Shown here: positions 1,128 to 64,000 of the stretch, in pieces
Layout: every line of letters begins with the position of its first letter
How positions within the stretch are numbered: position 1 is the first letter of the stretch
DNA from: Chiloscyllium plagiosum
Lineage: Eukaryota
Direction: 5' to 3'
NCBI RefSeq assembly: GCF_004010195.1
Contig: NC_057754.1
Span: 7,764,725-7,828,724 of the forward strand
Length of the DNA: 64,000 nt
Notes under the pieces: generated by a model
What the model saw: only the letters and a program-made list of their open reading frames with translations
Database searches by the model: none
What the model was told of the DNA's origin: nothing
Program-made: the position numbers and the translations under genes

Positions 1128-1382
1128 CAGGAGAAAGTGAGGACTGCAGATGCTGGAGACCAGAGTTGAAAAGTGTGGTGCTGGAAAAACACAGCAGGCC
1201 AGGCAGCATTCAAGGAGCAGGAGAATCAACGTTTCGGGCATAAGCCCTTCATTCCTGAAGAAGGGCTTATGCCCGAAACGTCGATTCTCCTGATCCTTGG
1301 ACGCTGCCGGGCCTGCTGTGTTTTTCCAGCACCACACTTTTCAACTCTGGTCTCCAGCATCTGCAGTCCTCACTTTCTCCTG
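1128..1382. mobile_element. Palindromic non-autonomous PLE-derived element with hammerhead core
   Basis: Arms ggagaaagtgaggactgcagatgctggaga ... tctccagcatctgcagtcctcactttctcc. Same family at 3530-3662, 42920-43120, 49910-50010 and 63365-63450. Confidence 0.75.
1251..1286 (+). ncRNA. Minimal type I hammerhead ribozyme motif
   Basis: CUGAAGA (1255-1261), A, stem II GGGC-uuau-GCCC, GAAA (1275-1278), then C-GUC; predicted cleavage after 1282. Stem I is weak. Confidence 0.65.
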
Positions 1383-2339
1383 AGAGGGATATGGGTCAAG
1401 TGCAGGCGAGTGGGACTTGATTAGTTCAGGAAATCTGGTCAAGATGGATAAGTCATAGTCATGGGTTTATGAAGCAGATCCTTAGGTCCACGCTGAAAGT
1501 TGGGCTGAAGGGCCTGTTTCCATGCTGTACACCTTGATAGGTGTTCAGATGAAAACTCTAAAAGTCAGAGTGCTGAAGATGAGGGGTCGAGTGCTGGGAA
1601 ATGGGATTTGAATAGATGGACGTTTGACAATCGGTGCAGACATGATGGGCTGGAAGACCACATTCTGTGCTTGTGAAAACTCTCCAGGACTCGATCATCC
1701 ACCCTCTGAGAAAACAAATTCCCCCTTGATTCCGTTCCAAGTGGGAGACGATTGGACCTGGATTTTCGCGGAGTCGGGATGGTTCGAGACATGGCTGAGG
1801 GGGGGGTGGTGGTGGGAACAGCTGCTGATGCCCGAATTTTTCACAGCCTTTTCAGTTTCTGGGAGCTGCCTTTTTAAAGGTGTATGTGTGTGGTGGTTGT
1901 CGAGGGAGGGGGGGGCTGAAGGTGGGTGGGGTCTAGTTTGGCTCACGCACCTCCAGATGGCTCTCGCAGCCAGAGTCCTTGGCTCCACCATGGAGATTGG
2001 AGGGGCACACAGTCACCTCTGCCGCACCCCTCCCAACAAGGTTTGAATGGGTCAGGCCAGCCCTTTGAAGGGTGATCAGTCATGCCTGGCCTCTCGGGGG
2101 TGCTGGGAACTGCAGTCAGCGTGTGCCACCCACACCCACGTCAAGGGGTGCCTCTCTACCCAGCTCCCATGGATCTTTGTGCTCGCCATACACCCCCATA
2201 CACTCGTCCACAGCCCCTCAGTCTACACCCATTCTCTTGCCAGGCTGAGACTCTCCATGCAGCCATCATATCCCCCTGAATTAAGTCTTTTGTTATTCTT
2301 TCACAGCCTTTGGGCATCACTGGCTGTGCCACCATTTAT

Positions 2340-2710
2340 TCATAGAATCCCTACATTGTGGAAGCAGGCCATTCAGCTCATCGAATCAAATCACCATCCC
2401 ACCCAGGCCCACACCCTAACCCTGCATTTCCTGTGTCTAATCAGCTTAGCCTACACATCCCTGGGCACTATGGGACAATTTAGCACGGCCAATCCACCCT
2501 AACCTGCACATCCCTGGGCACTATGGGGCAATTTAGCACGGCCAATCCACCCTAACCTGCACATCTTCAGACTATGAGAGGGAACTGGAGCACCCAGAGG
2601 AAACAAACGTGTAAACTCCACACAGACAGTCATCCAAGGGTGGAATTGAACCCAAGTCCCTGGCACCATGAGGCAGCGGGGCTAACCCACTGAGCTACCA
2701 TGCCACCCCT
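2340..2710 (-). mobile_element. HE1-type V-SINE (tRNA-derived) with internal ~53-bp duplication
   Basis: Reverse complement shows head ggcatggtagctcagtgg, B box ggttcaattcc and body gatgtgcaggttagggtggattggccgtgctaaattg. Confidence 0.85.
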
Positions 2711-2875
2711 TTATCGTCCATCTCTAACTGCCCTGTGGGAGGTTCGGAGTCCTGTCCTCATTTATATGCTGCCCTCCTCCTTCTCAGTGGTGGGTTCAAG
2801 GATTTGGAAGGTGCTATCTAAGGATCTTTGGTGACTTGCTGCAGTGCATCTTTTAGATGGTACATACTGCTGCTA

Positions 2876-3280
2876 CTGAACATTTTCCATCGTGGGACCA
2901 TCCAACCATACGGTATTAATGTCAACTTCACCAATTTGCTCATCTCCCCTCCCCCACCCTCATCCAAGATCCAACCCTCCAACTCAGCACCGCCCTCGTG
3001 AGCTGTCCTACCTGTCCATCTCCCTTTCCATCTATCCACTCCACCCACTCCTCTGACCTATCACCATCACCCCCCAACCTGCATCTACCTATCACCTTCC
3101 CAGCTACCTCACCCCCACCCTCCTATTAATCTCTTCCCACCCTCCACGTTCCTGCTAAAGGGCTCATGCCTGTAACGTCGACTCTCCTGCTCCTCGGATG
3201 CTGCCTACGTGCTGTGCTTTTCCAGCCACACCTTTCGACTCTGACTCTCGAGCATCTACAGTCCTCACTTTGTCCTTCTA
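2876..3280 (+). mobile_element. Penelope-like element 3' remnant (endonuclease C-terminus, 3' region, decayed hammerhead)
   Basis: Translates NIFHRGTIQPYGINVNFTNL, resembling the PLE C-terminal LIFRLGTLQPxGINxxF motif. Followed by a C-rich tract and a decayed core cctgctaaagggctcatgcctgtaacgtcg. Confidence 0.7.
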
Positions 3281-3529: not shown

Positions 3530-3662
3530 TTCATTCCTGAAGAAGGGCTTATGCCCGAAACGTCGATTCTCCTGTTCCCTGGATGCTGCCTGACCTGCTG
3601 CGCTTTTCCAGCAACACATTTCCAGCTCTGATCTCCAGCATCTGCAGACCTCACTTTCTCCT
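3530..3662 (+). mobile_element. PLE-derived short element with intact hammerhead core
   Basis: CUGAAGA 3537-3543, GGGC-uuau-GCCC, GAAA 3557-3560, CGUC 3561-3564; tail matches the right arm of 1128-1382. Confidence 0.7.
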
Positions 3663-4299
3663 CAAAGTGTTCCATATCACCACAACTAAACTTAAAAAAG
3701 AGATTCTCATCATCCCCTCTAGTTCTTTTGTCTATTCTGTGCCCTTGTCGTCATCCACACTCCTTTCAGTAGAAACAGCTTCCCATTTCATGAACTCTGC
3801 CGAACTGCGCGTCATTTGGAAAGCTAATTTACACAGGGAATGAGTCCAAGATGCACTCTTGTAACTGACTAGGTGCGTCCATGCATAAGCTGAGGAGAGA
3901 CCTGCCGGTTCTGGTCAATATGTGTTCATTGATGGTTTTCATAGAAAGCTGAAAATTGCTACTTTTCTGCTCTCTGGGGACCTTGCTGGGCTCAAGTCAA
4001 CTCCAGTTTTCCCCATGTTTTAACAGCAGCTGCAACACCTTTTTATGTTCATATGGCACCTTCCAATTCAATTCAGTTTAATTTAATTCACAGGAGCGTG
4101 GCCAAAGGTTTGGAGCTCCCCGCCCCCCAAAAAAAGGAAGGTATTGGTTTTGGACCCAGCCGTGATCTTATTGAATGGGGCTGAACGACTTTTTTATGGT
4201 CTGGAGTCTTTGTTTTTTTTAAGGGAAGGAAGTGGGTTGCAGAGGGGGAGAAATTCCCTGTTGCCATGATACTTCCACTCAGGCTCTGGGGCACCGACT

Positions 4300-4550
4300 A
4301 GGCCTCTGAAGGGGGCGGGGCAATGGTGCGGGGGGGGGGAGGGGCAAAGGACTACAACTCCCAGCGGCCCCCGGGGCGGGGCGTACGCTCCGCGGCAACC
4401 GCACGCCGATTGGCTCGCGTGACCCGGCGCTGGGAGGCGATTGGAGAGCGGGGGGCCGTCAATCACGCGGAGGGGCGGAAGTGGGGCTGGAGAGTGTCAT
4501 GGCCGGGGCTGTGTGAGGGGGACATGTGAGCAGCAGCAAGCAGCAGACAG
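4300..4550 (+). promoter_or_regulatory. CpG-island promoter and probable non-coding exon 1 of the AKR gene
   Basis: CpG-dense. GC boxes at 4311 and 4373, ZNF143-associated motif ACTACAACTCCCAGC 4351-4365, reverse CCAAT boxes 4409-4413 and 4440-4444, ETS motif CGGAAGTG 4476-4483, splice donor CAG|GTAACC at 4550/4551. Confidence 0.7.
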
Positions 4551-5644
4551 GTAACCTACCAGCTACAGGTCCTGCCTTTAACACTGTGGCCTTTGCAGGT
4601 AATGCAGAGGCTACACGAATTCTGCATTCATACTGATGCTATTAATAGTTTTACCAGGTCTGCTGTCCCATTAGACAGTGACCATGTGGGAGGTGCTGGT
4701 GTTGGACTGGAGGGTGGGCAAAGCCTTTTAAAATAAAAACCACAATACACCAGGTTACAGTCCAACAGGTTTATTTGAAAGTACATTCCTCTGCTCCTTT
4801 GTTGGGTAGTTAGTGGCGCAGGATACACAGGGCACGGGATTTATAAGTAAAAGATCAAAATGTGGTACATCTCATGCAATGTGTTGAACAAACCCACGTG
4901 AGTCTTTAATCACTTAGAACGGGGAGGCTGGTTTCGATGGATTGAGAGAGGGACTGACTGGCTGAGGGCTGCTGTACTCCAGGCGGGAGGTGGGGGGCGG
5001 CAAAAAGAGAGAGAGATACTGAGACTGAGGAGATCTCTTCGTGGTAACCTCAGCCGGTCATGGGTTTCGAACTTGGTGCCACAAAATGCCGCCAACCGAT
5101 CTTCTGGCTGACAGAGCTGAACTGACCCCCACTCCCACGTTGGGATGCCTAATTCCCCACCATTAAAAAATCAAATACTTCCCCTGCCCCCCCTTCCCCC
5201 AATCACCACCACCACCATTGTTGCTTCTCGGCATCATGGGGGTGCACGCTCAGATACCCAGTGCATCAAAAGTGTAAAAATAAAGGACACGCGGTGTGGG
5301 ATCTAATTTCGTGGCCACCGGGGGTCAGAGCCATGTCCCTCGACGATCACCTCTTTCTCTCAATCTCAGGTAACCCAGTCTCCGTCCATTGGAATAAAAA
5401 TCCAGGGGAAAAAAAATTGATAACTTTTTTTCCTGCCTGTAAAGAAATTATTTTGGTTTGGATGTTAATGATGCGCAGGGATAAGGCAAGAGACTGGTAC
5501 TGGGGAGCAGTGCCAGACGAGATGACTGAGTCAGTGCGGCACAGTGGGCCGAATGGCCTCATACTGCACCACATCAATTTTGTGTAAAAAAACAAAAATG
5601 TGATTTTGTGTATGTGAAATATAAAAATGTTAGCCACTTAGAGC

Positions 5645-6035
5645 AGCACCGTGGCTCAGTGGTTAGCACTGCTGCCTCACAGTGCCAGGGACCCGGGTTC
5701 GATCACACCCTCGGGCAACTGTGTGGACTTTGCACATTCTGCTTATGACTGCCTGAGGTTTCCTCCGGCTGCTCCGGTTTCCTCCCACAGTCCAAAGATG
5801 TGCAGGTTAGGGTGTATTGGCCGTGCTAAATTGTCCCAGAGTGTCCAGGGATGTGCAGGTTAGGGTGGATTGGCCGTGCTAAATTGTCCCATAGTGCCCA
5901 GTGCAGGTTAGGGTGGATTAGCCGTGGGGAATGCAGGGTTACAGGGATAGGGTGGCAGGTGGGTCTTTGGATGTTTGGTTTTGACTTGATGGGTTGAATG
6001 GCCTGCTTCCACACAGTAGGGATTTTATGATTCTA
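5645..6035 (+). mobile_element. HE1-type V-SINE
   Basis: A box gtggctcagtgg, B box gggttcgatc, V-SINE core ggtttcctcccacagtccaaagatgtgcagg, CR1-like tail. Confidence 0.85.
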
Positions 6036-6931
6036 GGGAGGGTACCCTCATAAGAACAGCGGTAGGTGATTGCATCCATCCTTCACTGGATTGGCTCAAG
6101 GCACTGGATCCCTGCTGATGTGAGGCGGCAGTGCTAACCACTGAGCCTCCTTGCTGCCCACAGTGTTCAAGGGTGTGCAGGTTGGGTGCATTAGTCAGGG
6201 GTTAAATATAAGGGAATGGGTCTGGGTGGGTTACCCTTCGGAAGGTTGGTGTGGACATGTTGGGCCGAAGGGCCTGTTTCCACACTGTACGGGGTTCTAT
6301 GATTCATTCTATGACTATAATAATCCCGCAATCTACAGCCAGATCTTTCCTTCCATTTTGTCAGATGCCAGATGTGAATTCAAAAGAAAGAAATTCTAAA
6401 GCTTGCATCCGAACATACTACTCTGATGTATCACATATCATTCAAAATTGAGCCCCATGAAATATGACCATACTGTGGCAAGCATTTGACTGAGGAACAC
6501 TAGGTCCTTGCAGCCTCCTCCACCATTCAATAGGGTCATGGCTGATCTGATATGAGTCCGTTCGTTTCCAAATACTACTGACATTCTTATCTTTGGGTTC
6601 CAATGTGCCAAATCTTATCGTGTTCCCAGGAAAATGAGGGATAAAAGAAACCTGTTGGAAACCAGTATAACGTAGAAATGAACTTGCTGCTTGTACCAGA
6701 GTTGACCAGGAAGTATTGGGATTACTGACTTCCTGGCATTTGGAACACCCTCAATTAAAAAGTCTTTTCTGGTGCAGACAGAGCCATTCGGCCTGTCGCA
6801 TTCAGGCTGGGCTTTCCCAAGGAGTGCTTCCCCCAGCAACACTCCCCTGCACTCCTGCCCACTCTCCCTGTTCAGATAATAATCCTGATTCCCTGTTAAA
6901 GGCCTGGATTGAACCTGTCTCCCCGCAAGAC

Positions 6932-7525
6932 AGGACATTCCAGACCCTAACCCCTCGGGTGAACCTCCCCCTCACCCCCACACACTCAGTATGTTTCAGA
7001 CCCTAACCCCTCGAGAGAATCTCCCCCTCACCACCACACACTCAGTATGTTTCAGACCCTAACCCCTTGAGTGAACATCCCCCTCACCCCCACACACTCA
7101 GTATGTTTCAGACCCTAACCCCTCGGGTGAACCTCCCCCTCACCCCCACACACTCAGTATGTTTCAGACCCTAACCCCTCGAGAGAATCTCCCCCTCACC
7201 ACCACACACTCAGTATGTTTCAGACCCTAACCCCTTGAGTGAACATCCCCCTCACCCCCACACACTCAGTATGTTTCAGACCCTAACCCCTCGGGTGAAC
7301 CTCCCCCTCACCCCCACACACTCAGTATGTTTCAGACCCTAACCCCTCGAGTGAACCTCCCCCTCACCCCCACACACTCAGACAGTACGTTTCAGACCCT
7401 AACCCCTCGAGTGAACCTGCCTCCCCCTGACACCGTGAGACAGTACATTCCAGACCCTAACCCCTTGAGTCAACCTCCCCCTCCCCCAAACTGTCAGACA
7501 GTACATTCCAGACCCGAACCCCTCG
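6932..7525. repeat. 56-bp minisatellite, about 10 units
   Basis: Motif gtatgtttcagaccctaacccc recurs with its ATG at 6991, 7047, 7103, 7159, 7215, 7271 and 7327. Confidence 0.95.
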
Positions 7526-8436
7526 CTGTGTTAAATTTTCCCTGAAATCCTTTTTTATTTGTTTTCCGTACCCTCCTGTTCTCAACCCTGCGTGAATGGT
7601 TTCTCCCCATTTTCTGTCCAAGCCCCTCAGCATTTTGGACAGCTCCTGTTGGATTTCTTGCCAGCTTTCTCTTCACTGACATTACCAACTTCTCGAGTCT
7701 TGAGAGCTAACGTTCCTCATCCCCGGAATCATCCATGTCGGACTCTGCCCCTCGAAGGATAGTACTATGGGAGTGCCACATTGGCAGAGTTTCCATTCTA
7801 GTCAATGTCCCAGCTGCCCCTTGACTGACACTAAAGGATCCCGTGACTGCTGTTGAGAAAGGGAGAGGCGAATGGGTGGCCTCGTTGGGGTGTTGACCAA
7901 CATTTATGTCGTACCCACCCTCACTGAAACGTGATCTGCTCATTAACCCCATCGCTGGGAGTGGGACCCAGCCCTGAGCAAGTTAGCTCCAAGCTGAAGG
8001 TTCGTCACTGTCAGTGAAATGCTCGGGCTTCCCGAGTACATGACTGGCGCTACAGAAATGCAGGTCTTCCTTTCCTCCTACGTTTTTGGGTAGCATTTGG
8101 ACAGCAAGTGCAGTCTCGACAGAGACAGCAAGTCGGAAACGGGGTGGGGTCGATGTAGGGTGGGGGTTAAGATAGCTGAAATTCTATCAACGTGAGTCAA
8201 CAGGGAGTAGCCAGGTACGAGATGTGACATGTTTGATGCGATGTTTGCGCAGTGAGTTCTTACGTGGTCTCTGGAAAGATGCAGCAAATAATTTCAACCG
8301 CACCGGTCAAAATATCTTTGACTTAAGTCCTCAGAACTCTTGCAAATTTACCAGAGCGTTGGGGAAGGGTTGGGATTAATCGGATAATGTGGGTCATTAC
8401 TGGAAAGAGAGGCATCCTGCCAACATTGTGCGTCCT

Positions 8437-8725
8437 GCACGGTGGCACAGTGGTTAGCACTGCTGCCTCACAGCGCCAGGGATTTGGGTTCAATTCCCAC
8501 CTTCGGCGACTGTCTGTGTGGAGTTTGCACATTCTCCCCGTGTCTGCATGGGTTTCCTCCCAAAGATGTGCAGGTTAGGGTGAATTGGCCGTGCTAAATT
8601 GCCCGTAATGTTAGGTGAAGGGGTAAATGTAGGGGTATGGGTGGGTTGCTCTTCGGAGGGTCGGTGTGGACTTGTTGGGCCGAAGGGCCCGTTTCCACAC
8701 TGTAGGGGACCTAATCTAATCAAAT
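8437..8725 (+). mobile_element. HE1-type V-SINE
   Basis: gcacggtggcacagtggttagcactgctgcctcacagcgccagg head; (ctaat) tail. Confidence 0.85.
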
Positions 8726-10516: not shown

Positions 10517-10705
10517 AAGTTAAAAATCACACAACACCAGGGTATAGTCCAACACGTTTTGGTTGGAAGCACTAGCTTTCGGACACCCACCTGATGAAGG
10601 AGCAGCGCTCCGAAAGCTAGTGCTTCCAAATAAACCTGTTGGACTCTAACCTGGTGTTGTGTGATTTTTGTCCACCCCAATCCAACACCGGCATCTCCAA
10701 ATCGA
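10517..10705. mobile_element. Palindromic PLE-derived element (second family) with 9-bp target-site duplication
   Basis: Inverted arms 10522-10583 and 10609-10669, flanked by gactagatt at 10508-10516 and 10706-10714. A related decayed sequence starts near 4735. Confidence 0.75.
10588..10622 (+). ncRNA. Minimal type I hammerhead ribozyme motif
   Basis: Stem I CAC/GUG; CUGAUGA 10591-10597; stem II GGAGC-agc-GCUCC; GAAA 10612-10615; self-complementary AGCU stem III; CUA cleavage triplet ending at 10619. Confidence 0.75.
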
Positions 10706-10962
10706 GACTAGATTGGTCTCTCCCATCCAGATATCCTAAATTAAAGTGTCTGTAGGACTCGTCGTATCTCCCTAATCCATTTGGTTATTCTGGTGAAGAG
10801 TCACCGGACTAGGAATGTTAACTGTGCTTTCTGTCTCGCTCCAGACCTGCTGAGTTTCTCCAGCTGTGTGTGTTTTTTTTTGCTGTTTCAGATCCCCAGC
10901 GCCCGGGGTCCTTGTTACTTCCCCGTTGTGTCCTCCAATTCCCAGCGGTCTGAACAGGGAGG

Positions 10963-11817
10963 ATGGACAGTGTGCAGCTCAACAACGGGGTGGAGATGCC
11001 TCTGCTAGGCCTCGGCACCCACAGGTTGCGAGGGTATGAGGCCGTGTACCGGGCGCTGGATGCCGCGCTCAGGCACGGTTACCGCTCGGTCGACACGGCC
11101 AGCGTGTACGGCAACGAGGGGGACATCGGCAGGGCGCTGGCAGAGCTGCTGCCCAGGCACGGCCTGTCCCGGGCCGACGTCTTCATCACCAGCAAGCTCT
11201 CGCCAGCGGATCAGGGGGAGCGGGCCGAAGAGGGCGCCTTACGGAGCGTGGAGACCTTGGGCTGCAGCTACCTGGACCTCTATCTCATCCACTGGCCCGG
11301 CCGTCAGGGCTGGAAGAGCGAGGACCCCCGTAACCCGGGGTGCAGGCGCCGCAGCTGGGAGGCGCTGGAGGGCCTCTACAAGAGAGGCCTCTTCCGGGCC
11401 CTCGGAGTGTCCAACTACACGGAGGGCCACCTCAGGGAGCTGCTGGCCCATTGCCGGGTGCCGCCGGCCGTGCTGCAGGTGGAGTATCACCCGCGCCTGG
11501 TGCAGAGCGGCCTGTTGGCCTTCTGCGCCGAGCACGGCCTCCACCTGCAGGCCTACTCTTCCCTGGGCACAGGGTGCCTGCTGGAGGAGCCTCAGGTACA
11601 GGCCCTGGCCTCTGCCTACGGCCGCAGCCCCGCCCAGGTGCTGCTGCGCTGGGCCGTGCAGCAGGGCATCGGGGTCATCCCCAAGTCGGCCAATACCGAG
11701 CGCGTTGCCGCCAACGCCCGGCTCTTCGACTTCTTCCTGGCCCCGGAGGACGCCAAGCTGCTGACCGGGCTGCACTCTGACAGCCACTACTGCTGGGACC
11801 CCCGGGCTGTCGTCTGA
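10963..11817 (+). CDS. Aldo-keto reductase (NADPH-dependent), 284 aa, uninterrupted ORF
   Basis: N-terminal LNNGVEMPLLGLGT; catalytic tetrad D44 (DTA), Y49 (VYGNE), K78 (TSKL), H110 (LYLIHWP); GVSNY, LQVEYHP and IPKS cofactor motifs. Codons are strongly GC3-biased. Pyrimidine-rich acceptor ...tcctccaattcccag at 10945. Confidence 0.95.
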   Translation: MDSVQLNNGVEMPLLGLGTHRLRGYEAVYRALDAALRHGYRSVDTASVYGNEGDIGRALAELLPRHGLSRADVFITSKLSPADQGERAEEGALRSVETLGCSYLDLYLIHWPGRQGWKSEDPRNPGCRRRSWEALEGLYKRGLFRALGVSNYTEGHLRELLAHCRVPPAVLQVEYHPRLVQSGLLAFCAEHGLHLQAYSSLGTGCLLEEPQVQALASAYGRSPAQVLLRWAVQQGIGVIPKSANTERVAANARLFDFFLAPEDAKLLTGLHSDSHYCWDPRAVV

Positions 11818-11996
11818 GCTGGGGTGGGGGAAGGTGGCTGGGGATGTCTGAGTAACCGGCCTGTGCTGCCTACTTCAGGCTGCACCCCTGCCCGGTTCCA
11901 AATCCTGACTTGAGACGCGCCAAGGATGTGAAGGGTTGGGGGGTGGGGGGGGGGGTTGGTGCGTTCCCCCCCCCCGGGTCCAGAGCTGTGTTTGAA

Positions 11997-12002
11997 AATA
12001 AA
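11997..12002 (+). terminator. Probable polyadenylation signal of the AKR gene
   Basis: First AATAAA after the stop codon, about 180 nt downstream. Confidence 0.6.
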
Positions 12003-13142: not shown

Positions 13143-13145
13143 AAG

Positions 13146-18253: not shown

Positions 18254-19019
18254 AGGGTAGCCCACAAGCCTTCCGGATCTCAGCCCGCCCCTACGTGCCT
18301 TGTTCTCAGTCCGCCCTGACACACCTTTCGACCACCTCTAGGACAGCCCGCCCAGGGTGACAGCAGTCAGGACAGCCTACCACCTTCCGGCTTCACTAAC
18401 CACCCTCAGCACCTTTCGACCACCTCTGGGGCAGCCCGCCCCGGTACCTGCCCGGGGTGACAGCGCTGAGGACGGCTACCCGCCTTCTGGCTCTCGGTCT
18501 GCCCCTACGACCAACATGACTTTATTATGGCTAGTGAACAGATCTTTCCAATTACTAATTGATTTCCTGGGTTTTAAAAGGTGAGAGCAAAATACTCACC
18601 AGTCGATCACTTACCTATTTCATTTCCGTCGAGTGTCTCTCTGCCTCCTCCTGTGCAGCTTCTCTACCCCTTCACTCCTGCAGCCTGGCCATGTTCGAGA
18701 AAGGAGAATGGACTCCTCCTTTCCCCTCTGCTCAGACCTCCCTCACTCACCAAATCCCGTGTGTCACACTCTGTGCAGTGCGGCCTTCTATGGTGATGTG
18801 AAAAGATGCCTCAGAAGAGGGTGTGGTCTTGTAGAGGAGACTGCCAACTGTCACTTTAACGAGCTGCTTTGACCTGCAGCCACTGGGCTTCCTTATCCCT
18901 GTCTGAGTCTGGAAGAAACTTCCAAGTGTCTCCGATAAAGTGCTTAATTTTAAAGAGAGTTAGCTCTTCAGCTTAACCTTCTTGCTCACCAAACCCCGAA
19001 TACGTCACACGCTGCGCTG

Positions 19020-19720
19020 TCAGAAACGAAATCAGAAATTTGCTGGAGAAACTCGGGCAGGATCTGCGGGGGGAGAAAGCCGAGTTAACATTTCAGGTCC
19101 AACGACCCTTCTTCAGAACCGACTGTAGCAAGAAGAAGGTTAGGACATGGGTTAGGCTGGAGGTGGAGCCCGGGTAGAGACAAAAACAGTTGGGTAGACC
19201 AAGGAGCAGGTAAAGGTCAGCCTGGGCCATGGAATGGAGACTGTGAGTGGCTGACGTCGGGTTGTGTGTAATAGCAGACCGTGTGATGACAAGGCCTGGT
19301 GCGGGTGGAGTGTTAGGCTAAGGACATAGGAGAAACTGCTGGTGCACTGCAGAAAGCCTGAGGCACAGATGTTGGCCAAGGGAACGGTGGGGGGGGTGTC
19401 GAAGTGGCAGACGACTGGGATCTCAGGGTCTTTTCTTTTTGCAGGAGGAACGTAGGTGTTCTGTGAAGCAGTCACCCAGTCTGCACTTGGCCTCCTCAAC
19501 GTAGAGGGGACCGCATTGTGAGCAGAGAAGGCGGTGGACAAGATGGTCAGAAGTGCAGGTGAGGAAGGTGTAGCTGGGACCTTGGATACTGAGGAGGGCT
19601 GGTGTTGCACCTGACAGCGAGGGCAGGGGGAAGGTGTCGTCGGGCTGTGGGGGCCTGCTGGGAGTGGAGGTGGAGTGGCCCAGGGTGTCGCGGAGGGAAC
19701 AGTCCCTTACAGAAAGCTGA
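19020..19720 (-). mobile_element. Penelope-like element remnant with GIY-YIG endonuclease and terminal hammerhead (third family)
   Basis: Minus strand translates TCTSDHLVHRLLCSQCGPLYVEEAKCRLGDCFTEHLRS (decayed VY..C..C..YIGET..RL..R..EH motif), then PVVCHFD...GFLQC. Hammerhead GUU-CUGAAGA-A-GGGUC-guug-GACCU-GAAA-UGUU-AAC at about 19084-19119(-). Confidence 0.8.
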
Positions 19721-25937: not shown

Positions 25938-26238
25938 CTGACATAAGAAATTGTTGGATAAGCTCAATATCTGCCTAACCCTAACCCTCACCCTATCCCT
26001 AACCCTGACCCTAACCCTAACCCTGACCCTAACCTTGACCCTGACCCTGACCGCAGCATCTGTGGAGAAAAATCAGAGATAACATTTTGGGTCCGGTGAC
26101 CTTTCCTCTGAACCGTATCAGAAACGTTAACTCTGATTTTGCTTCACAGATGCTGCCAGATCTGCTGAGCGTTTCCAGCAACTTCTGTTTTTGTTCCTGA
26201 TTTACAGCATTTCTTTTGGTTTTTAGTCTGACATAAGA
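25938..26238. mobile_element. Palindromic PLE-derived element (third family, cores decayed) with 11-bp target-site duplication
   Basis: ctgacataaga at 25938-25948 and 26228-26238; inverted arms gcagcatctgtg...agagataac and gttaactctg...cagatgctgc. Confidence 0.65.
25974..26052 (-). repeat. Interstitial telomere-like tract (CCCTAA/CCCTGA)n
   Basis: About 13 hexamers: ccctaa, ccctca, ccctga variants. Confidence 0.85.
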
Positions 26239-42190: not shown

Positions 42191-43295
42191 TCACTCTGCT
42201 TTCGAGAAGTAGCTTTGTATGTAAAGGAATTGGCGGTGTTTGTAGCAGTGTCTACACATCGCGCTTTACCCCATTAATACCATCAGGAGCATGGAAAGAA
42301 AGGCTTGTATTTAGACCGCCCTTAGAAGGGCTTCCGCAGTGAGTCACTTTGAGGTATGGTGACAGGTTACACAGGCACTCTATATTGGGATCGCGTTGGA
42401 AAGGGAGTCTGCTGAGTGAACTGAGCTAGTTGACTTGGTCCAAAGTGAAACCTGAGGTTTATGCCAATGGTACTTGTCCCTTACTCTGTTGTTCATTCAC
42501 CCTGGTAGGTCACCACTGATACCTGGGGAAAGCACCATGCAGCTCCCCATTTGGGATAGTGCCTTTTATGACCTGCCTGACCCGCCAGAGCATTTTAAAG
42601 GAAGTGTGCCAACCAAATTGCACACAGCTAGCTTCCCGGTACATCGATATGGTGCTGGCCAGCTTCTCTGAACTCCTGTGCCCATCTGCCAGGGCCTGTG
42701 ATCTTTCAGTTGAGTGGGAGAGTCCAGACAAGGCCTCAAAGTTTAGCGTTTCCTCCAAAACGCAGCACGTCTGATGCCTCAGCACTCCTTGAGCAGTCTT
42801 GGAAATGAATACTTGGCTCACGGACTCAAGTCGCCAGAGTGGGGCTGGAACCCGCAGCTTTCTGATCCACAGATGAGAGAGAGGGGGAGGGCGCCAACTA
42901 TTCATGCCTGGCTGACTGTTGACAGAGTCGAGAGTGCGGTGCTGGAAAAGCACAGTGGGTCAGGCAGCATCCGAGGAGCAGGAGAATCGACGTTTTGGGC
43001 AATCGGCCTTTCATCTGGAGTCTACATTCCTAATGAAGGGCGTATGCCCAAAACATCCACTCTCCTGCTCCTCGTATGCTGCCTGACCTGCTGTGCTTTT
43101 CCAGCGCCACACCTTTTTGACTATAAATCCAAAAACTCAACTAATTTCTGGGGACCTGCATTCAAATCCTACCACAGCTCATTCCTCATGTGTCAGGCAA
43201 GAGTGTTGAGGTGTTGAAGACCTTGAAATGTTGAACCTGGTGGATGGGGTGCCAATCAAGTTGGACTACTTTGTGTTGTTGGAGCTGCCCTTATT

Positions 43296-43852: not shown

Positions 43853-43885
<33 letters not shown>

Positions 43886-47000: not shown

Positions 47001-49907
47001 GTATTCATTCAGATCGTGCCTTACTGTCCCTCCCAGTATCTTTCCCTTTGTCCACAATGCAGCAATCCCCTTCGCTGCTGGTGATGTGGCCTAGGATCCT
47101 GCCTGTTCCTTTTCGCATACTTTTTTGCTTCCCCCCCTTTCCACCGTGAATGAATGGGTTCCTGCCAGCTGTTTGGATTTATCACCCTCCACCAACCCTT
47201 ATCCCCCACTTCCATTTCTACAACCTCCAACATGATGCTCAAGATCTCGCTCTTTCTCTCGACGCTGGCGCTCTTGCTCTCTGAGCACTCAATCTCGCTC
47301 GCTCTCTCTGAGCGCTCGTGCTTGCTCGCTCGCTCTTTCTATCTCTGAGTCCCCTCTCCTTTCTTTCCTTGCTTTGCTCCATTCTCAAGGTGGCATTATC
47401 TGTGATCCCGTGATCCTTCCCTGTCACTGCCACATGGCCTGCCTTTGCCACAGTACCTGTACTGGTAAAGAAAAGAGCACCATCCGAGCCCTCAGCCGCT
47501 TGGGGAGTGCCTTCCTTGTGATTCAGTCTATTGTATTCGCTGTTGGCAGTGTGGTCCCCTCTATAGGAGGGAGACAAAGTGCAGACAGTGTGCGGCTGCT
47601 TTGCTGAGGGCCTCCTTTCAGGCCCTCAGCACCGTTCTGTCCGTTAATTGGTGGGAGCCCAGGCCAGGCATTGTCAATAGCCGGAGGTCATGGATCAGTG
47701 CTCCTCACTGGGGGTCTTCAGAGGCCAGGAGTCAAAAGGAAGAAAAGTAGAAGGAGAAGAAGATAAGGAGGAAGACAGAGGGAAGAGAAAGAAGAAGAGG
47801 AGTGGGTGGAGCAGACGAGGGTTAGGGTTAGGGTCAGGGTTAGGCTGGAGTGTCCTACTCCACTACCATCTTGCAATGTTCCAGATTTATAAGGTACTGT
47901 GATGGGGTTTGAACCCCTGTACCAGGATATTGGCTTGGCCTTCTGGAGTTTTAGTCCAATGACAATAGCATCATGCCAGCACCCTCCTGCGGGTGCAGTC
48001 CTCCCTCTCCGACCTTGGTCTCTGCAGTATTCCAGTGCAAGGTTAAGGAGTAGTAGCTCAACCTTCGACTGGCACTTTACAGCTTTCTGGAGATTAATGA
48101 TCTTAAACTTGAAACCGCCTTCCTTTGTTCCTTTGAGTCTCTTCTTTCTCATTTCACTTTGGCCCCTTTGCTTTCGGGCTGGTCATGATCCTAGTGTAGG
48201 TATTTCTAGTCCACTTGCCTTCTGTTTCTTTGCCTGGGGGTTGGGGGGGTGGGGTGGAGTTGGCGGGAAGGTGGAGTTAAGGACTCTGTTCGGTCTACCA
48301 TGACTTTATTGAATGGCACAGTGGCCTTGAGCGGCTAAATGGCCGACTTCCTGCTCCTCAGGTGCCATCCGTGCCATCTTCCTTCAAGTCCAGAGTAATG
48401 CCCTAATAGGACCTTGTGCTGTTTGAGATTCATTCCCCAGCTCATGTTGAGGTTTAAACTCTGGCTGAATCAACTGTTACTCATTCTCTTGCTCACCCAT
48501 GCTTTATGTAACCTAGTCGGTAACTCGCTCTTCTCCCACTCTACCGGGACAGAGTGCTTTTGATAATCCTTTCGTCCCTGACCTTTCCATTCATCTTTAT
48601 CTCAAATATCGATTGCTCTGCCCTTATCGCAGGCCATTTCAATTTATCACAAATCTCGACAGTGCAGACCCCCCCCCCCCCGCCAAGAGAAAGCAGTCTC
48701 CTACTCCAAAGGTCAGACAGAGAAACATATTGATGTTTGCACTGAAGTAGAACTTGGTTACTATTTATCAGACACCTTGAGAAGTTTAGACAGGGGTTAG
48801 ACAAGCCTGAAGGGAAGGTTGCATTACTTCTGACACTGGAGCCCCCACTAACCTGTTCGTGTCCCTCTCTCCCCCTGAGAGATGGAGGAGGCATTTTGCT
48901 GATTGAACAGAGAGCAATGGCTTTTATTTATTTGCAGGCCGTGGGTGTTGCTGGCTGGGACACCATTTATTGCCCATCCCTAATTGCCCATAGGACAGCT
49001 AAGACTCTACCACATTGATTTGGGTCTGCGGTCACCAACTGGGTAAGGATGGCAGTGAACCAGACGGGTATTTCCAATAATCGACCGCACTTTAACAAAC
49101 ATCACGAGACCCTCCATTCCATTTTTCAAATTCAATTTCTGTCATCTCGCTCCAATGGGATTCGAACCCAGGTCCCAAGCACGTTGTCTGGGTCTGTGGA
49201 TTAATATTTGAGCAATAAAACAATGGCCCATCACCTACCTATAACCCAATTATTAGGCTCACACGTCCACATTAATGTACATTTGAAAATTCCACCCCAC
49301 ACCCATCGCTAGATTGCCGGTGCCCTTTGCCACTTTGTGCATGAGTCACTGAGATACTACAAACAAGACGGGAAATAAAAATAGGGACCGCTCATTCGGA
49401 TCTATGGGTCCTGCTCCACTGTTGACTGAGATCATGGCTGACCTTCTAACTAAACCTAATTTTTACCGCACTATCCCTGTATCCCTTGATGCCTTTATAG
49501 AACTGTGTCAGTCACTGAATTGAGCATACTCCTTATTGGAGGTGGGAAATTCAATGGTTGACCACCCCTTGAAATTCCTCTTCACCTGAGTGCTATTGTG
49601 GGCTCTGACCCCTAGGCCTCCTCCTCCTCCTCCTCCCAGACCCACACATTGAGTTCTTTAACCTCTCAGCATTGCAGACAGAAGGGTTTGGGGGCCATGA
49701 CTCACCAAACCACAGTACACAGATGCAACATGTGTTGAGGAAGGCAGAGGAATGTTGTCACTTATTGTTGGGGAATGGAATCTAAAAATAAGGATATTTT
49801 GCTCCAGTTGTATAGTGCATTGGTGTGGGCTGTTCCCGCAGTACAGTGTGGAAAGAGAAGATAATTGTGTTTCACTGGAGGCTCTTATGCTGCAGTGATA
49901 GTGTCCC

Positions 49908-50012
49908 TTTTCCTGATGAAGGGCTTTTGCCCGAAATGTCGACTCTCCTGCTCCTCGGATGCTGCCTGATCTGCTTTGCTTTTCCAGCGCCACACTCTCT
50001 CTCTCGACTCTG
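49908..50012 (+). mobile_element. PLE-derived short element with hammerhead core
   Basis: CUGAUGA 49913-49919, GGGC-uuuu-GCCC, GAAA 49933-49936, UGUC. Confidence 0.65.
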
Positions 50013-51279: not shown

Positions 51280-51520
51280 AATGCTTCAGACGCTCAGTAA
51301 GAGGTCTGACAGCATCTGTGGAGAGAGATCGGAGTCAGTATTTCTGGTCCAGTGACCCTTCCTCAGAACTGGAGCCCTTCACTCAGATGAGTTCTAAGGA
51401 AGGGTCACGTTGACTAGAAGTGTTAGCTCTGGATCGTTTCCCACAGATGCTGCCAGACCTGCTGAGTTTTTTCCAGCAGTTTCTGATTCTGTATTTGTTT
51501 GTGATTTCCAGCAGCCGGAG
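51280..51520. mobile_element. Palindromic PLE-derived element (third family, decayed)
   Basis: Inverted arms cagcatctgtgg...gacccttcctcagaact and agttctaaggaagggtc...ccacagatgctg. Confidence 0.6.
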
Positions 51521-52477
51521 TTCTTTTTGTTTTTCACAAAAAAAAAGCTTAACTGTGGCCGTGGAGAGCTCCTGAGATTGCAAAAGCGTTTTCCCTGGAG
51601 TCGGGCATCCAGTTATTGTTGGGATAAGTTTGGGGGTCAAACTGTCCAGAAAAGGGATTATTTTAAATTGGTCCCAGTTGCAGCAGGAAACGGGGAATGC
51701 AGTTGTGACTGGCTTGGGTCAGGTCAGCAGTTTGCATTGTCTGTCGAAATTGAGCTGGTTATTTCTGCGTGCAGGTTTATTTACAATTGACGAACTGGTT
51801 AAATATTTGGAATGCTAAACTTTTTTTGCAATGCACTCCCTCACCCTTCTATCCAGTAAAATGCAGCTTTGGTGACACACCTCCTCCCCACCTCCAAACT
51901 TGCCGGGAGCGCACACTCCCAGCGAGCTCTCGAAATTAGCATGGAAAGTCATTGACCCTGGCAGTGCAGAAGGAGGCTGTCCTGCTCACTGGGGAAAAAG
52001 CAGCCACCTCTCGGCCCTCACTTCCCACCTTTTTTGTAAGCTGTTTGTTGACAGTACGCCCCCATGGGGCTCCCTTTATGAACTGATCGCTGGAGCCGGT
52101 TTGCAGAAACGGCCTGCTCTCCCGAATGCGAATGTTCATACTTGCCTCCCCTCGAGATCGCCTTGCCCGATGGTTTAAAACTCTCGGACCACTGGCTGTA
52201 GGGAAAAATAGACTTCATTTGCTGAAAGTAAACAAAAGGTTACTTTGGGAAACAGTTCCTACAATAACAAACGGGGGGATTCCTTCACTTTATTAATTTA
52301 CTTTGCCACTGACGAGGCCAGTATTTATTTCCCATCGCAATTTGAACAGAACAGCTTGCTTGACTATTTCAGAGGGCAACTAAGGGTCAACTGCAGTGCT
52401 GTGGGTCTGCAGTCACATGGACGTTGCATGTTTTATGTTGTATTTTAATACGACTGGTAAATGAAGACAAGACCGTG

Positions 52478-53092: not shown

Positions 53093-54161
53093 ACAGTGCT
53101 ACGGGGTGCATGGCTAGTTGGATTAAGTTGTGCACACACAACGCTGGAAAGAGTCAGCAAGTCTGGCAGCATCTGGACAGAGAAATAGAGTTTACGTTTC
53201 AAGTCCAGTATGACTCTCCTTCAAAACTAGTCCATAACAGCTGTCTTCCTTTGTGGGGGGCATGATTCTAACCAAGAAAGTTTTATTTTTGTAATTTTGA
53301 TTCCCATCACGAGAAAGGAAATGAGGGATGGCTATTGTATAGCAAGCAGAGGAGCAAAGGTTAAATTAAATGGAGGGGAAAGATGTGCTACGTGGTATCC
53401 CACAGGGGTTAATTTGACTTGCTCTCGCTGTAACATAGGACAAATTGCTGAGGCCACTGAGTCCCACCCACTTCCCCCTGCCCCAGCAGCAGCACCACCA
53501 GCAGAGGAAATAGCGATCACCCAGGAGCAGGTTTTAGCTGGGCCGACGTGTCACACTGCTTTGCCACAGATACTCTGTAGCCCTTCAGTGCACTGCCACC
53601 CTCTCAATGAAGCTCTTGCTCGCTGCTGGGCCAAGGAAGAAAACAGCAGTGCTCATTTCCAGAGGTACATCGTTGGATTTGGTCGTGTCTTGTGTTGAAG
53701 TGTGAGCATTGGAGAATGTGTGGTCGCAGGGTACCTTCCAGGCGGTGAGGGGGAGAGGCAAGTAAGGGCCAACAATTCCACTGTTGGGTTTCATGTGGAA
53801 ACAGGAATCTGTGGCTTTGTCAAAAAGGGGAACCTTGGTAATTTATTTTCTTGCAGAATTCCCCTTCTGTTATTATCTCAAAATATTGCACTGTTTGTGA
53901 TCTGAGGGTGTTCCAAAGCTCTTTGCCTCCAATGAAGTCCAGCCATTGATGTGATATCAGAAATGTCGCAGCCAGTTTCTCTCACTCTGTGATCTTGGAC
54001 CCTTTAATGGTGATCAATTGGATCACATCTGAATCTCTTCTTGAGCGGATTCAAGTCCAATTTGTGGGAGCCCACCCTCTTATAAGCCCGGGGGTCATTT
54101 GGGTGAAAATGTGCTGCATTCCCCCCCCCCCCCCCCCCCCAAAGACTAATATCTCCTACCT

Positions 54162-61349: not shown

Positions 61350-62530
61350 GCACTTAGAGCCGTACAGCACAGAAACAGATGCTTTGGCCCAACTTGTCCC
61401 ATTCACCTATGTTTGGCCTATATCCTTGTAAATCTTTCCTATTCGTGTATCTATCCAAATGTCTTTTAATTGTTGTAACTGTACCTGCATCCACCCCTTC
61501 CTTTGGCAGTCCATTCCATATACAAACCGCTGTGGGGTGGTACGGTGGCTCAGTGGTCAGCCCTGCTGCCTCACAGCGCCAGGGAACCGGGTTCGATTCC
61601 CGTCTCGGGCAACTGTCTGTGTGGAGTTTGCACGTTCTCCCCGTGTCTGTGTGGATTTCCTCCGGATGCTCCGGTTTCCTCCCACAATCTAAAGATGTGC
61701 AGGTTAGCTGAATTGGCCGTGCTAAATTGCCGATAGTGTTCAGGGATGTGTAGGTTAGGTACATCGGTCAGGGGTAAATGGAGGATAATAGGGTAGGGGA
61801 GTGGGTCTAGGTGGGTTACTCTACGGAGGGTCGATGTGGACTTCTTGGATCGAAGAGTCTGTTTCCACACTGTAAGGATTCTGTGACTCTCTCTGTGGTA
61901 AAAGTTGCCCTTTGTGTCCCTTTTAAATCTTTCCGCTCTCACCTTAAAAAATGTGCCCCCTAAGTTTTGAAGATCCCCCACCTGAGGGAACTTGGCTAAT
62001 CACCTTATCTATGCCCCTCATGATTTTATAAACCTCTCTAAGGTCACCCCTCAACCTCCTACGCTCCAGGTAAAAAATGTCCCAGCTATCCAGCCTCTCC
62101 TTATAAATCGAACACTCCCTTCTCGGCAACATCCTGGTAAGTCTTGGTGGGCGGCACGGTGGCACAGTGGTTAGCACTGCTGCCTCACAGCGCCAGAGAC
62201 CCGGGTTCAATTCCCGCCTCAGGCAACTGTCTGTGTAGAGTTTGCACGTTCTCCCCGCGTCTGCGTGGGTTTCCTCCGGGTGCTCCGGTTTCCTCCCACA
62301 GTCCAAAAGATGTGCAGGTCAGGTGAATTGGCCATGCTAAATTGCCCGTAGTGTTAGGTAAGGGGTAAATGTAGGGGTATGGGTGGGTTGCGCTTCGGCG
62401 GGGCGGTGTGGACTTGTTGGGCTGAAGGGCCTGTTTCCATACTGTAAGTAATCTAAAAAAAAAAGTCCCTTCAGAACCCCCTCCAATTTAATACCATCCT
62501 TTCTGGAGCAGGATGACCAGAACTGTACAC
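61350..62530 (-). mobile_element. CR1 3' fragment interrupted by two + strand HE1 SINEs (about 61533-61886 and 62146-62463)
   Basis: CR1 sequence resumes in register after each SINE; both SINEs are near consensus. Confidence 0.85.
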
Positions 62531-62824
62531 GTGTCATGGTGTTGCCCAGGCTGCGGATGGAGAAGTACCAGAATGAGACCAAAAGAGGAGGCTTCTCCAT
62601 TCACATCCAGCAGAGTCTGGAGAGCTTGAGATGGTTTTACTTGCAACAGATTGGGTTAAAAGGAGATTCACTGGAACATTCAAAATCATGGGGGATCATG
62701 ATGAGGTAGTTGGAGTGACACTGTTCCCAGTTACAACAAGGTTGACATGGGATTAAGATTATCTACAAAAATATGACTAGGGAGACATTTTCTTCCATAT
62801 CATGTTGTCTTGTTCTCTTGGCAT

Positions 62825-63035
62825 GCAGGTAAAGTCACCATCGTCCTCGGGGACCATCGCACCACGCTCTCGTTAGAGAGAGACGAGTGGCGGTAGTTTA
62901 ACCTGTGGTTTACTGGGACTCAGACGAGGGGAGCGGTTGGGAAGGACAGTCCTTCATGGTGTCCTCAGCCAGTGCGAGAATTGAACCCATGACGTTGGTG
63001 CCACTCTGTGTCGCTAACCAGCCTAACTGAGTCTT
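62825..63035 (-). mobile_element. tRNA-headed SINE-like element (related head at about 5035-5130, minus strand)
   Basis: Reverse complement has ctcagttaggctgg...gggttcaattc..ggctgagg in both places. Confidence 0.5.
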
Positions 63036-64000
63036 GTGGCTCCAGATAGATAGCAACTATTTCAATGGATGATGGAACAACATGTTAATGACAGCTCTCC
63101 AAAGCCAATGAGAAAGCCACTTAAACATTTGCAGGACCATGAGTAAAGAGCAGGGAAGTGGGACTAATTGGATAGTACAGGCACAATGGGCTGAATGATC
63201 ATCATCTGCAGTGGTCTCATTCTTCCATCCTCATTTTTTAAAAAGCTGCAATTTCTGTTGCAAAACTGCTTTTCAATTTGGATACATCTTTCCGCTTGCA
63301 GTGTCGGAGAGATCTGTTTCCAATGAGACACATTCTCGTGCTACTTGGCCGATCACTGAACAGGTTTTGAAGGGATTATGCCCGAAACATCGATCCTTCT
63401 GCTCCTCTGATGCTGCCTGACCCGCTGTGCTTTTCCAGCACCGCACTCTTGGCTGTGTACTTTCAGGCTGGTTCCAAAACAGGAACTTGCATGACATTTC
63501 TGCCTTGTGTGTATTGTCACCTTCAAATTTGTTGCCATCTCTTCCAGACCTCGATTGTTAGGACCTTGATTATTTTCCCATTGTATGCACTCAGTTATAA
63601 ATGTTGTCCTGGTTGACCATGGGCGCACGTTCTTCCTCTACCTTCTTGAATTGTCTGAAGCTTTTAAACATCTTGAGTTATCCAAAGAGGCAACACAGCA
63701 GGGAGGGAGTGAAGGAGACGGGACGGCAGGTTTTCAGGGAGGGAGGGAGAAACCGAATGCTTAGAGGTAGAAAGAGCCAAGGCAATATGCAAACTATTAT
63801 TTCAATGAGAGACTACTTCTGTCACATCCTAAAAAGTAGCACGTGGTAGTGGAGGCTAAGTCACTGATTGGGTATAAGAAAGAAGTAGATTTGTTTCTAG
63901 ATATGGAAGGGGAATGTGAAGAGAGATTGAGTATGGTGTTGAGATAGAGGATCAGCATGATCAGGGATGGCATGGTAGCTTGGTGATTAGTACCGCTGCC

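Follow-up and report, generated by a model that had tools for sequence, protein, structure and literature searches.

Results

Repeats and genes of the window

The 64-kb window (the whole stretch of DNA that was analysed) contains an aldo-keto reductase gene and 13 units, with 18 arms, of hammerhead-bearing repeats that belong to three families, A (GGGC), B and C (GGGUC) (Table 1). Together these units cover about 2,893 bp (4.5%) of the window. At the 90% level the neighbouring protein groups with proteins of Chiloscyllium punctatum and Hemiscyllium ocellatum; the very abundant population that an earlier note had proposed for a shark is thus borne out on both counts. At all 12 of the positions listed there we found either the motif or a decayed copy of it, and five opposite-strand arms can now be added (1131-1250, 10517-10582, 26053-26113, 42908-43019 and 51285-51370). 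The same note had spoken of three unrelated stem families. Families A and C, however, have in common a 33-nt tail segment with 85-88% identity (BLASTN within the window, E 1e-5 to 3e-7), and they are therefore related. The palindrome centred on the 1255 unit is a fold-back that is either real or an artefact of the assembly.

Table 1. Positions of the genes, repeat units and associated features in the 64-kb window. PLE, Penelope-like element; TSD, target-site duplication.
Feature	Position	Strand	Remarks
Palindrome, 1,250 bp	1..2509		centred on 1255 unit; 8 mismatches, 5 of them in 1201-1228
Family A head-to-head pair	1131..1380		plus arm 1251-1380, intact minimal hammerhead 1255-1282; minus arm 1131-1250 cut inside core
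Family A 5'-truncated PLE copy	2881..3277	+	ORF C-terminal end 2882-2935, pyrimidine-rich 3' UTR, broken core 3152, tail
8-bp TSD of the preceding copy	2873 and 3278
Family A solo unit	3533..3665	+	intact core 3537-3564; 7-bp TSD at 3526 and 3666
Aldo-keto reductase first exon	4495..4550	+	start approximate; donor GT at 4551
Family B remnant	4728..4810	-	broken core; absent from the earlier list
Family B head-to-head unit	10517..10705		plus arm: intact core 10591-10619, AATAAA 10629-10634, GU-rich stretch; tail on plus arm only; 9-bp TSD at 10508 and 10706
Decayed family C copy	10785..10915	+	tail contains AG 10890-10891
Aldo-keto reductase CDS	10963..11817	+	284 aa, one coding exon; PF00248, E 3.5e-46
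Family C 5'-truncated PLE copy	19000..19713	-	GIY-YIG remnant 19429-19671, intact core 19087-19116, tail
Telomere-like hexamer array	25974-26052		minus arm of the following pair runs into it
Family C head-to-head pair	26053..26225		both cores broken
Family A head-to-head pair	42908..43130		both cores broken
Family A solo unit	49907..50010	+	intact core 49913-49940; short 3' end
Family C head-to-head pair	51285..51535		both cores broken
Family C solo unit	53125..53232	-	broken core
Family A solo unit	63369..63460	+	truncated inside core

The hammerhead core

An intact core was defined as CUGANGA, an extra A, a stem II of 4-5 bp, GAAA, NN and UH. Such a minimal hammerhead is retained by five units (A at 1255+, 3537+ and 49913+, B at 10591+, C at 19116-), that is, in 5/13 core-bearing arms. 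The core pattern taken as sequence only gave these five matches against a shuffled mean of 0.88, with one of 100 shuffles reaching five; with the stems included the mean fell to 0.005, and none of 200 shuffles reached five (largest, 1). Among seven weak matches that Rfam returned for the window, up to E 10, there was no hammerhead family.

The extra unpaired A between positions 9 and 10.1 is present in all 13 core-bearing arms, and the 10.1-11.1 pair is G-C in four of the intact cores and G-U in the fifth. There is no monomeric stem III; its place is taken by a palindromic 15.2-16.2 (CG in A, GC in B, UG/CG in C) that is pairable in 5/5 intact cores. Regarding stem I, which the earlier note had required to be pairable, C (4 bp) and B (3 bp) are so, while A is borderline, with 2 bp followed by a pyrimidine mismatch. 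The changes in stem I are compensatory between families, and six stem positions have changed on both sides. When stem pairs were counted by motif position, 92/117 stem cells paired, as against 24-64 when the alignment was slid, and one of the 13 rows was off by one base. Folding of six unit or tail sequences gave ordinary stabilities (z from -1.6 to +0.1), so that for the tails of A and C, with the arms GAUGCUG/CAGCAUC, a conserved structure can only be suggested.

It had been argued that a conserved core on different stems speaks for function rather than chance. Within a family, nevertheless, the core fares no better than the tail in this window, an outcome that the earlier note itself had named as telling against its reading: in family A the mismatch is 7/66 (10.6%) for the core and 37/358 (10.3%) for the tail (p=1.0), and in family C 9/66 (13.6%) and 54/302 (17.9%) (p=0.47), both with a small sample of 6 arms. 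This comparison dropped the three arms that are truncated inside the core and left out family B, with its one intact core and one remnant. As the core decays like the tail within a family, selection would have acted on the source elements and not on the copies. The argument for function thus holds for the source elements, where we infer that the hammerhead has been kept by selection, and fails for the dispersed copies, which appear to decay neutrally.

Insertion architecture

Five of the 13 units are head-to-head inverted pairs and the other eight are single arms. With a minimum length of 7 bp, TSDs (of 7, 8 and 9 bp) flank 3 of the 12 units tested, family A shows two 3' end classes, and the family B unit has a one-sided tail of about 34 nt. 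With respect to their upstream limits, 11/13 core-bearing arms seem to start no more than about 10 nt before the core, and 0/18 arms begin at the cut site. There are no head-to-tail repeats among the 13 units, nor does any TRF array cover them. 5' truncation, an adjacent inverted 5'-truncated copy, a 30-40 bp tail at one end and a variable TSD are what has been described for insertion units of EN+ PLEs (PMC8557442). A MITE was also considered and rejected: 8/13 units are single arms, the arms are unequal, and the TSD is 7, 8 or 9 bp rather than of fixed length.

PLE coding remnants and their homologues

On the strand of the 19116 core, and about 310 nt upstream of it, there is a GIY-YIG remnant (HMM iE 2.4e-19) that scores 58.2 bits, as against 1.3 bits for the best of 20 block shuffles. 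The remnant is not recognised by Pfam, and a word-indexed protein search confirmed none of its 57 candidates; a full HMMER scan, on the other hand, found 36 relatives. These homologues include ray proteins and an 816-aa protein with RVT_1 (E 7.5e-6) and GIY-YIG (E 7e-4), both below the Pfam curated cut-offs, as is also the score of the RT in homologues P0009 and P0037. The CxxC linker before the GIY-YIG domain suggests that the source PLEs may be of the Neptune type, an assignment drawn from the homologues (P0009) rather than from a tree. The second coding remnant, a PLE C-terminal ORF end of 18 aa, belongs to a TSD-bounded unit and precedes the 3152 core by 217 nt; its score is modest (HMM iE 0.0013, from a 3-sequence profile). 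Hence the PLE origin claimed for these hammerheads finds support in the ORF remnants upstream of an A and a C copy, in the inverted pairs and in the TSDs. The upstream family sequence of A and of C is represented by one decayed copy each, and the window has neither a full-length PLE nor an RT. No PLE ORF was found adjoining any family B copy in the window, and B's PLE origin therefore rests solely on the motif and the insertion architecture.

Public metagenomes yielded 118 loci with 124 occurrences of the same motif, of which 54 have both stems. Around these 54, a PLE-like ORF is found upstream on the same strand in 14 cases, on the opposite strand in one, and downstream in none. None of the 118 loci has a tail matching A, B or C; the family A pattern has no matches in prokaryote genomes and viral contigs, and the family B pattern none in metagenomes.

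Use of family B and of a family C copy in RNA processing

In poly(A) RNA of a close relative, 1,724 of the 4,474 aligned reads end in poly(A) just after the AAUAAA of family B, at a junction some 28 nt past the uncut ribozyme site (about 133 junction reads per million reads). Family B is thus a poly(A) site, as seen for the family in the relative's reads and not for the 10591 copy itself. Read coverage shows no drop across the B cut site, and the RNA is seen uncut only; no pile-up of read beginnings or ends is listed at family B, in what is one poly(A) single-cell run whose oligo-dT priming could miss cleaved pieces or circles. The 1,483 loose read ends at 10583-10589 extend into three upstream sequences that are related and of the family type (agreement 0.64-0.70), and many B transcripts therefore include upstream sequence. 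Among the 40 read differences listed out of 115, the sole substitution inside 10591-10619 falls in loop II. Summed contig depth over B in a genome run of a relative is 1.5-3.8 million, as against 7.15 on the single-copy exon, a value that is not to be taken as copy number.

The other case concerns the aldo-keto reductase gene, whose first exon corresponds to the 53+3 nt head of one RNA-type contig (contig 24, run X9). The AG at 10890-10891, in the tail of a decayed C copy, is the splice acceptor of the coding exon, as shown by this one contig together with a relative's gene model. The intact B copy at 10517..10705 sits in sense orientation within the same intron, and the C copy that provides the acceptor has a broken core.

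Discussion

Relation to known systems

The class of these sequences is already known: PLEs that end with minimal hammerheads occur across metazoans, and the shark copies are further examples. Minimal hammerheads were described in the pLTRs of metazoan PLEs by Cervera and De la Pena (2014, PMC4209133), and the resemblance extends to the extra base between 9 and 10.1, G10.1-C11.1, the palindromic 15.2-16.2 and the short helix I. As there, a genome has several families, few hammerheads lie inside full PLEs, and most copies are solo or in opposite-strand pairs 100-700 bp apart. Helix I is given as 4-5 bp in that work, with 2 bp in a D. virilis variant that the family A helix resembles. In density, the five intact cores per 64 kb may be set against genome totals of about 4,000 for coelacanth and 9,000 for Xenopus; no shark is named in the text consulted or in supplement file 2. 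Annotation has already shown PLEs to be abundant in a shark genome (10.1101/443036). The C-terminal GIY-YIG and the strong 5' truncation are likewise features of EN+ PLEs (Craig et al. 2021, PMC8557442; Frangieh et al. 2024, PMC11167929). Cutting by the anole PLE hammerhead was reported to depend on PLE protein, and none of the reads stopped at its cut site, which is also what we see here (PMC11167929); the anole ORF starts inside the hammerhead, whereas the in-core ATG of shark A and B runs into a stop.

What is new here is the use of family B as a poly(A) site in a relative's RNA, and the C-derived splice acceptor of the aldo-keto reductase. Transposon-derived poly(A) and splice sites are known (PMC2553571), and in the present cases too host transcripts take an AAUAAA or an acceptor AG from the repeat; unlike those, the donor is a PLE end module of very high copy with a predicted dimer-dependent ribozyme. 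We found no literature report of PLE end modules supplying host poly(A) or splice sites.

Origin of the repeats

The repeats are very probably 3' end modules (pseudo-LTRs) of endonuclease-bearing PLEs, truncated at the 5' end and often inverted, from at least two lineages (A with C, and B separately). The source module would consist of a short stem I strand, CUGANGA, the extra A, stem II, GAAA, the two-base palindrome, UH and the cut site, followed by 85-100 nt in which reverse transcription would start. On known PLE biology, full-length elements would supply the RT and the GIY-YIG endonuclease with which copies are made by target-primed reverse transcription. The hammerhead, its stem III being one palindromic pair, would fold only as a dimer or when aided by PLE protein. 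Host RNA processing makes use of some copies, family B as a poly(A) site and one C copy as a splice acceptor.

Several other explanations have to be weighed against this. Chance matches are encouraged by the 45 occurrences of the bare CUGANGA heptamer in the window, but with five full matches where 0.005 are expected, all of them in repeat families with shared tails, this explanation is vanishingly improbable. The earlier note had called the population retrozyme-like. Non-LTR retrozymes, in which units self-cleave, circularise and spread via small circular RNAs, do share a type I hammerhead, non-coding sequence, PLE relationship and high copy number (Cervera and de la Pena 2020, PMC7229834; Li et al. 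2026), and they have been reported, as proposed pLTR derivatives, in one chondrichthyan genome (10.64898/2026.07.22.740005). Retrozymes are, however, head-to-tail repeats giving circular RNA, and the lack of such arrays and of arms that begin at the cut site largely refutes this reading for the window. Moreover, the pairs place two hammerheads on opposite strands, the units fall short of the 150-450 bp of the repeats in PMC7229834, which have canonical hammerheads, and B reads pass uninterrupted over the cut site (cleaved pieces could, as noted, be missed by an oligo-dT library); such an origin is highly improbable.

Dedicated SINE-like mini-elements, with units of 95-135 nt that have a transcription start of their own just upstream of the hammerhead and are mobilised by PLE proteins, are an unlikely explanation, though hardly a negligible one. 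The clustering of arm starts within about 10 nt of the core is unlike random 5' truncation, the 3533-3665 unit is bounded by its TSD exactly at that point, and the family B depth is very high. Yet two copies extend into PLE ORF sequence, many B transcripts carry upstream sequence, and a fixed start could equally be the pLTR promoter of full elements. Finally, the dispersed hammerheads might be retained by selection as host regulatory elements, as the position of family B just upstream of a used AAUAAA and the intact sense-oriented B copy in the reductase intron might suggest. We consider this very doubtful: few arms have kept an intact core, the core decays as the tail does, the poly(A)-site and acceptor functions require the tail rather than the ribozyme, and the acceptor-bearing copy has lost its core.

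Consequences for shark transcripts

The poly(A)-site and acceptor findings show that even "debris" copies shape shark transcript ends. One extension, which we regard as very improbable, is that family B acts as a portable cassette of ribozyme and poly(A) site, present in very many copies, so that every mRNA ending in an intact B copy would carry a latent cut site 9 nt before AAUAAA. The Clec2 3' UTR hammerhead, which precedes a poly(A) signal, can bring about loss of the tail, as described in PMC6765202, and dimer cleavage is the subject of Lunse et al. (as cited in PMC6765202). Because the B ribozyme needs either a partner (palindromic stem III) or PLE protein, any two mRNAs with an intact B copy, or a burst of PLE protein, could cause the tails to be cut off. 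The cassette would be a sensor of copy number or PLE activity and would lower the stability of element and host transcripts alike; with the poly(A) site upstream of both putative reverse-transcription starts, polyadenylation would itself compete with retrotransposition. The two findings make it possible to test dimer- or protein-assisted cleavage directly on natural mRNAs, and the scale of the repeats in bamboo-shark-like genomes (about 4.5% of this window) brings statistical power to the question of what purpose the PLE hammerhead serves.

Hammerhead census and ribozyme anatomy

The CUGANGA heptamer occurs 45 times on the two strands of the 64-kb window in a pattern scan, and five of these occurrences belong to a full minimal hammerhead (min-HHR). 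Sequence alone gave five matches against a shuffled mean of 0.88; when the stems had to form as well (4 bp or more for stem II, 2 bp or more for stem I), there were again five, whereas 200 dinucleotide shuffles averaged 0.005. No Rfam model detects these hammerheads. All seven decayed sites listed in the earlier note proved homologous to the five intact ones. Counting opposite-strand arms and a family B remnant (4728-4810), the window holds 13 units (single arms or head-to-head pairs) with 18 arms, covering about 4.5% of it.

The families A, B and C are named by stem II (GGGC, GGAGC and GGGUC), whose length is 4 bp in A but 5 bp in the other two families. Stem I is longest in C (4 bp), followed by B (3 bp) and A (2 bp and then a mismatch). 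An extra A follows A9 in each of the 13 core-bearing arms. Self-complementarity at positions 15.2-16.2 (CG, GC, or a U-G wobble) restricts stem III to pairing between two ribozymes. Cervera and De la Pena (PMC4209133) describe the min-HHRs of Penelope-like elements (PLEs) by these same features. Between families six stem positions differ on both sides, and 92 of 117 stem cells are paired, against 24-64 in slid controls (one row is off by a base). The earlier note described three distinct families with unrelated stem II sequences, but A and C have a 33-nt tail segment in common (85-88% identity) and are therefore related, leaving two lineages. By eye this segment resembles, on the hammerhead strand, a branch point, pyrimidine tract and CAG; judged by its sequence, each sense copy may be a candidate cryptic 3' splice site.

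Features of the window
Feature	Position	Strand	Remarks
Intact min-HHR, family A	1255, 3537, 49913	+	pattern scan
Intact min-HHR, family B	10591	+	pattern scan
Intact min-HHR, family C	19116	-	pattern scan
Possible very short family A remnant	50136-50168		BLASTN E 0.076; left out of unit count
A/C common tail segment	3582-3613, 51446-51478		also in other A and C tails
GIY-YIG remnant	19429-19671	-	about 310 nt upstream of 19116 core; profile iE 2.4e-19
Second PLE GIY-YIG remnant	47514-47585	+	iE 2e-4; hammerhead not found downstream
Family B poly(A) feature	10629-10669		AATAAA at 10629-10634
Aldo-keto reductase gene (YtbE-like)	4495-4550, 10892-12020		one coding exon
Second pyrimidine tract with CAG	~10920-10958		
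Palindrome	1-2509		1,250 bp; centred on 1255 unit; reaches first base of window
Telomere-like hexamers	25974-26052		about 13 (CCCTAA, CCCTGA variants)
Shorter telomere-like run	~47820-47845		
Very abundant SINE-like family	5645-6300, 8432-8714, 20780-21470, 37792-38175, 61535-62456, others		internal 53-bp tandem unit; presumably shark HE1/V-SINE type
Minisatellites	6941-7487, 22490-22878, 52475-53088, 55748-56144		56, 44, 50 and 33 bp
LINE ORF2-like fragments (by eye)	26620-27904, 36520-36918		taken to be CR1/L2 type; no above-cut-off Pfam match

Origin and decay of the copies

A Penelope-like origin, as proposed in the earlier note, is supported by the GIY-YIG remnant upstream of the family C core at 19116 (profile of 25 relatives; none of 20 shuffles exceeded 1.3 bits). 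Among its 36 relatives are stingray and skate proteins and an 816-aa protein that matches reverse transcriptase (RT) and GIY-YIG, both below Pfam's cut-offs, and also carries a DKG motif and a CxxCxxC linker, the marks of Neptune-type PLEs in PMC8557442. In family A, the 3152 copy is a 397-bp unit flanked by 8-bp target-site duplications (TSDs), and its 5' end corresponds to the final 18 codons of a PLE-like ORF. The 3537 and 10591 units have flanking TSDs of 7 and 9 bp; none of at least 7 bp was found in 9 of the 12 units examined. Five units are head-to-head pairs, one arm of the family B pair is longer by about 34 nt, and family A arms stop at either of two places about 30 nt apart. This matches the PLE pattern of an inverted, 5'-truncated partner and a one-sided 30-40 bp tail, which in the anole element marks two reverse-transcription start sites (PMC11167929). 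In a metagenome control the hammerhead motif was found 124 times in 118 loci, and the 54 motifs with both stems had an upstream PLE-like ORF in the same orientation 14 times, one on the opposite strand once and one downstream never. No PLE ORF was found beside the family B copies in the window.

The copies had also been called retrozyme-like, a reading that is very unlikely for this window: copies of cleaved RNA should begin at the cut site and none of the 18 arms does so, none of the 13 units is head-to-tail, and the paired hammerheads lie on opposite strands. In 11 of the 13 core-bearing arms the start instead appears to lie at most about 10 nt ahead of the core, most simply read as a transcription start inside the PLE end module (pLTR). 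Nor do the dispersed copies bear out a core conserved for function. Mismatches to the majority row amount to 7/66 core and 37/358 tail cells in family A (p=1.0) and to 9/66 and 54/302 in family C (p=0.47), in a small sample that excludes three arms cut inside the core; cores are intact in three of six A arms, one of six C arms and the one core-bearing B arm. At the level of copies this is the outcome, a core no more conserved than its flanks, that the earlier note had itself named as contrary to its claim. The covariation between families, on the other hand, reflects selection on active source elements.

The hammerhead class itself has been published, along with the occurrence of many families in one genome and of pairs on opposite strands (PMC4209133). 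Annotation of the whale shark shows its PLEs as expanded (10.1101/443036), and a 2026 retrozyme survey includes one chondrichthyan (10.64898/2026.07.22.740005). In the literature searched we found nothing on shark hammerhead ribozymes or on PLE ends that act as poly(A) sites; transposon-derived poly(A) sites are known in general (PMC2553571).

Family B as a poly(A) site

Four read or contig runs were compared with positions 10400-12100 at 85% likeness. The genomic contigs of a close relative (X1; differing at 17 positions, with 30 gap letters, in about 1,420 nt) have a summed depth of 1.5-3.8 million over B against 7.15 over the exon, which is not a copy number but puts B in the class of very high-copy repeats. 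In raw poly(A) single-cell RNA with the same organism label (X21; a sample of 12.96 million reads, about 2% of the whole), 4,474 reads matched; over the B core 1,672 have the orientation seen at the reductase 3' end and 314 the opposite, so that the main RNA strand of B is the hammerhead strand. Departures into poly(A) occur behind 10645 (948 reads) and 10649 (776), in total 1,724 of the 4,474 reads or 133 per million reads, 11-15 nt past AATAAA (common variant ATTAAA) and just ahead of a GU-rich run. Since the reference has no A-run at this point and the best six loose ends listed for the genomic run include no matching poly(A) end, family B is a working poly(A) site, summed over copies, be the source RNAs host mRNA or element transcript. 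With 32 reads at least 99% alike, this use is read for the family and not for the copy in the window.

Depth does not drop across the B cut site (2,306 at 10604, 2,488 at 10630), nor is there a pile-up of read beginnings or ends there among those listed; the sampled poly(A) RNAs are uncut at the hammerhead, although an oligo-dT library would not capture fragments left by cleavage. Both 3' ends of the inserted copies lie downstream of the poly(A) site, so the polyadenylated RNA would not be their template. One metagenome locus has a B-like motif with AATAAA 18 nt past the cut site.

A probable PLE-derived acceptor in the reductase gene

The reductase (10963-11817) clusters with proteins of Chiloscyllium punctatum and Hemiscyllium ocellatum, which marks the host as a carpet shark akin to the bamboo sharks. 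In the 324-aa C. punctatum isoform residues 3-16 map to 4506-4549 and residue 17 onward to 10891; with a donor GT at 4551 and an AG at 10890-10891 the intron would measure 6,341 nt. This AG sits in the tail of a decayed family C copy; the corresponding dinucleotide is TG in three other members of the family. A 1,074-nt contig from a run guessed to be RNA (X9) matches from 10889, preceded by 53 unmatched letters; against the splice, this is the one contig of RNA support and another run (X4) has an unspliced contig spanning 10673-11941. On balance we think it highly likely that the acceptor is used. The intron also holds the intact sense B unit, about 240 nt upstream of the acceptor. The second pyrimidine tract with CAG, by its sequence, may be an older reductase acceptor. 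The upstream ATG, open in the long C. punctatum isoform, runs into stops in the window.

Possible rearrangements at hammerhead units

The arms of the palindrome differ at 5 positions in the inner 50 nt, at none in the 73 nt of element that follow and at 3 in the outer 1,200 nt; the near-identical outer arm is therefore a recent fold-back copy at an old short inverted repeat, formed either in vivo or as a by-product of library preparation or assembly. The longer telomere-like array directly joins the truncated minus-strand arm in a family C pair, a junction that may represent telomerase-type healing at a break.

Proposed mechanism

The following scheme as a whole is, we consider, very probably correct. 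Its direct observations are the sequence features, the pattern of decay and the use of family B, as a family, for polyadenylation; target-primed reverse transcription (TPRT), dependence on a dimer and the transcription start are inferred. Full-length Neptune-type PLEs would have supplied RT and endonuclease, which nicked DNA and by TPRT copied element RNA, starting about 55-100 nt beyond the hammerhead at one or other of two points. Copying would mostly have ended where the hammerhead begins, often with a switch that yielded an inverted partner. The hammerhead would serve the source element, presumably cleaving only as a dimer or with a PLE protein, while the dispersed copies would decay neutrally and a few be taken up by the splicing and 3'-end machinery of the host.
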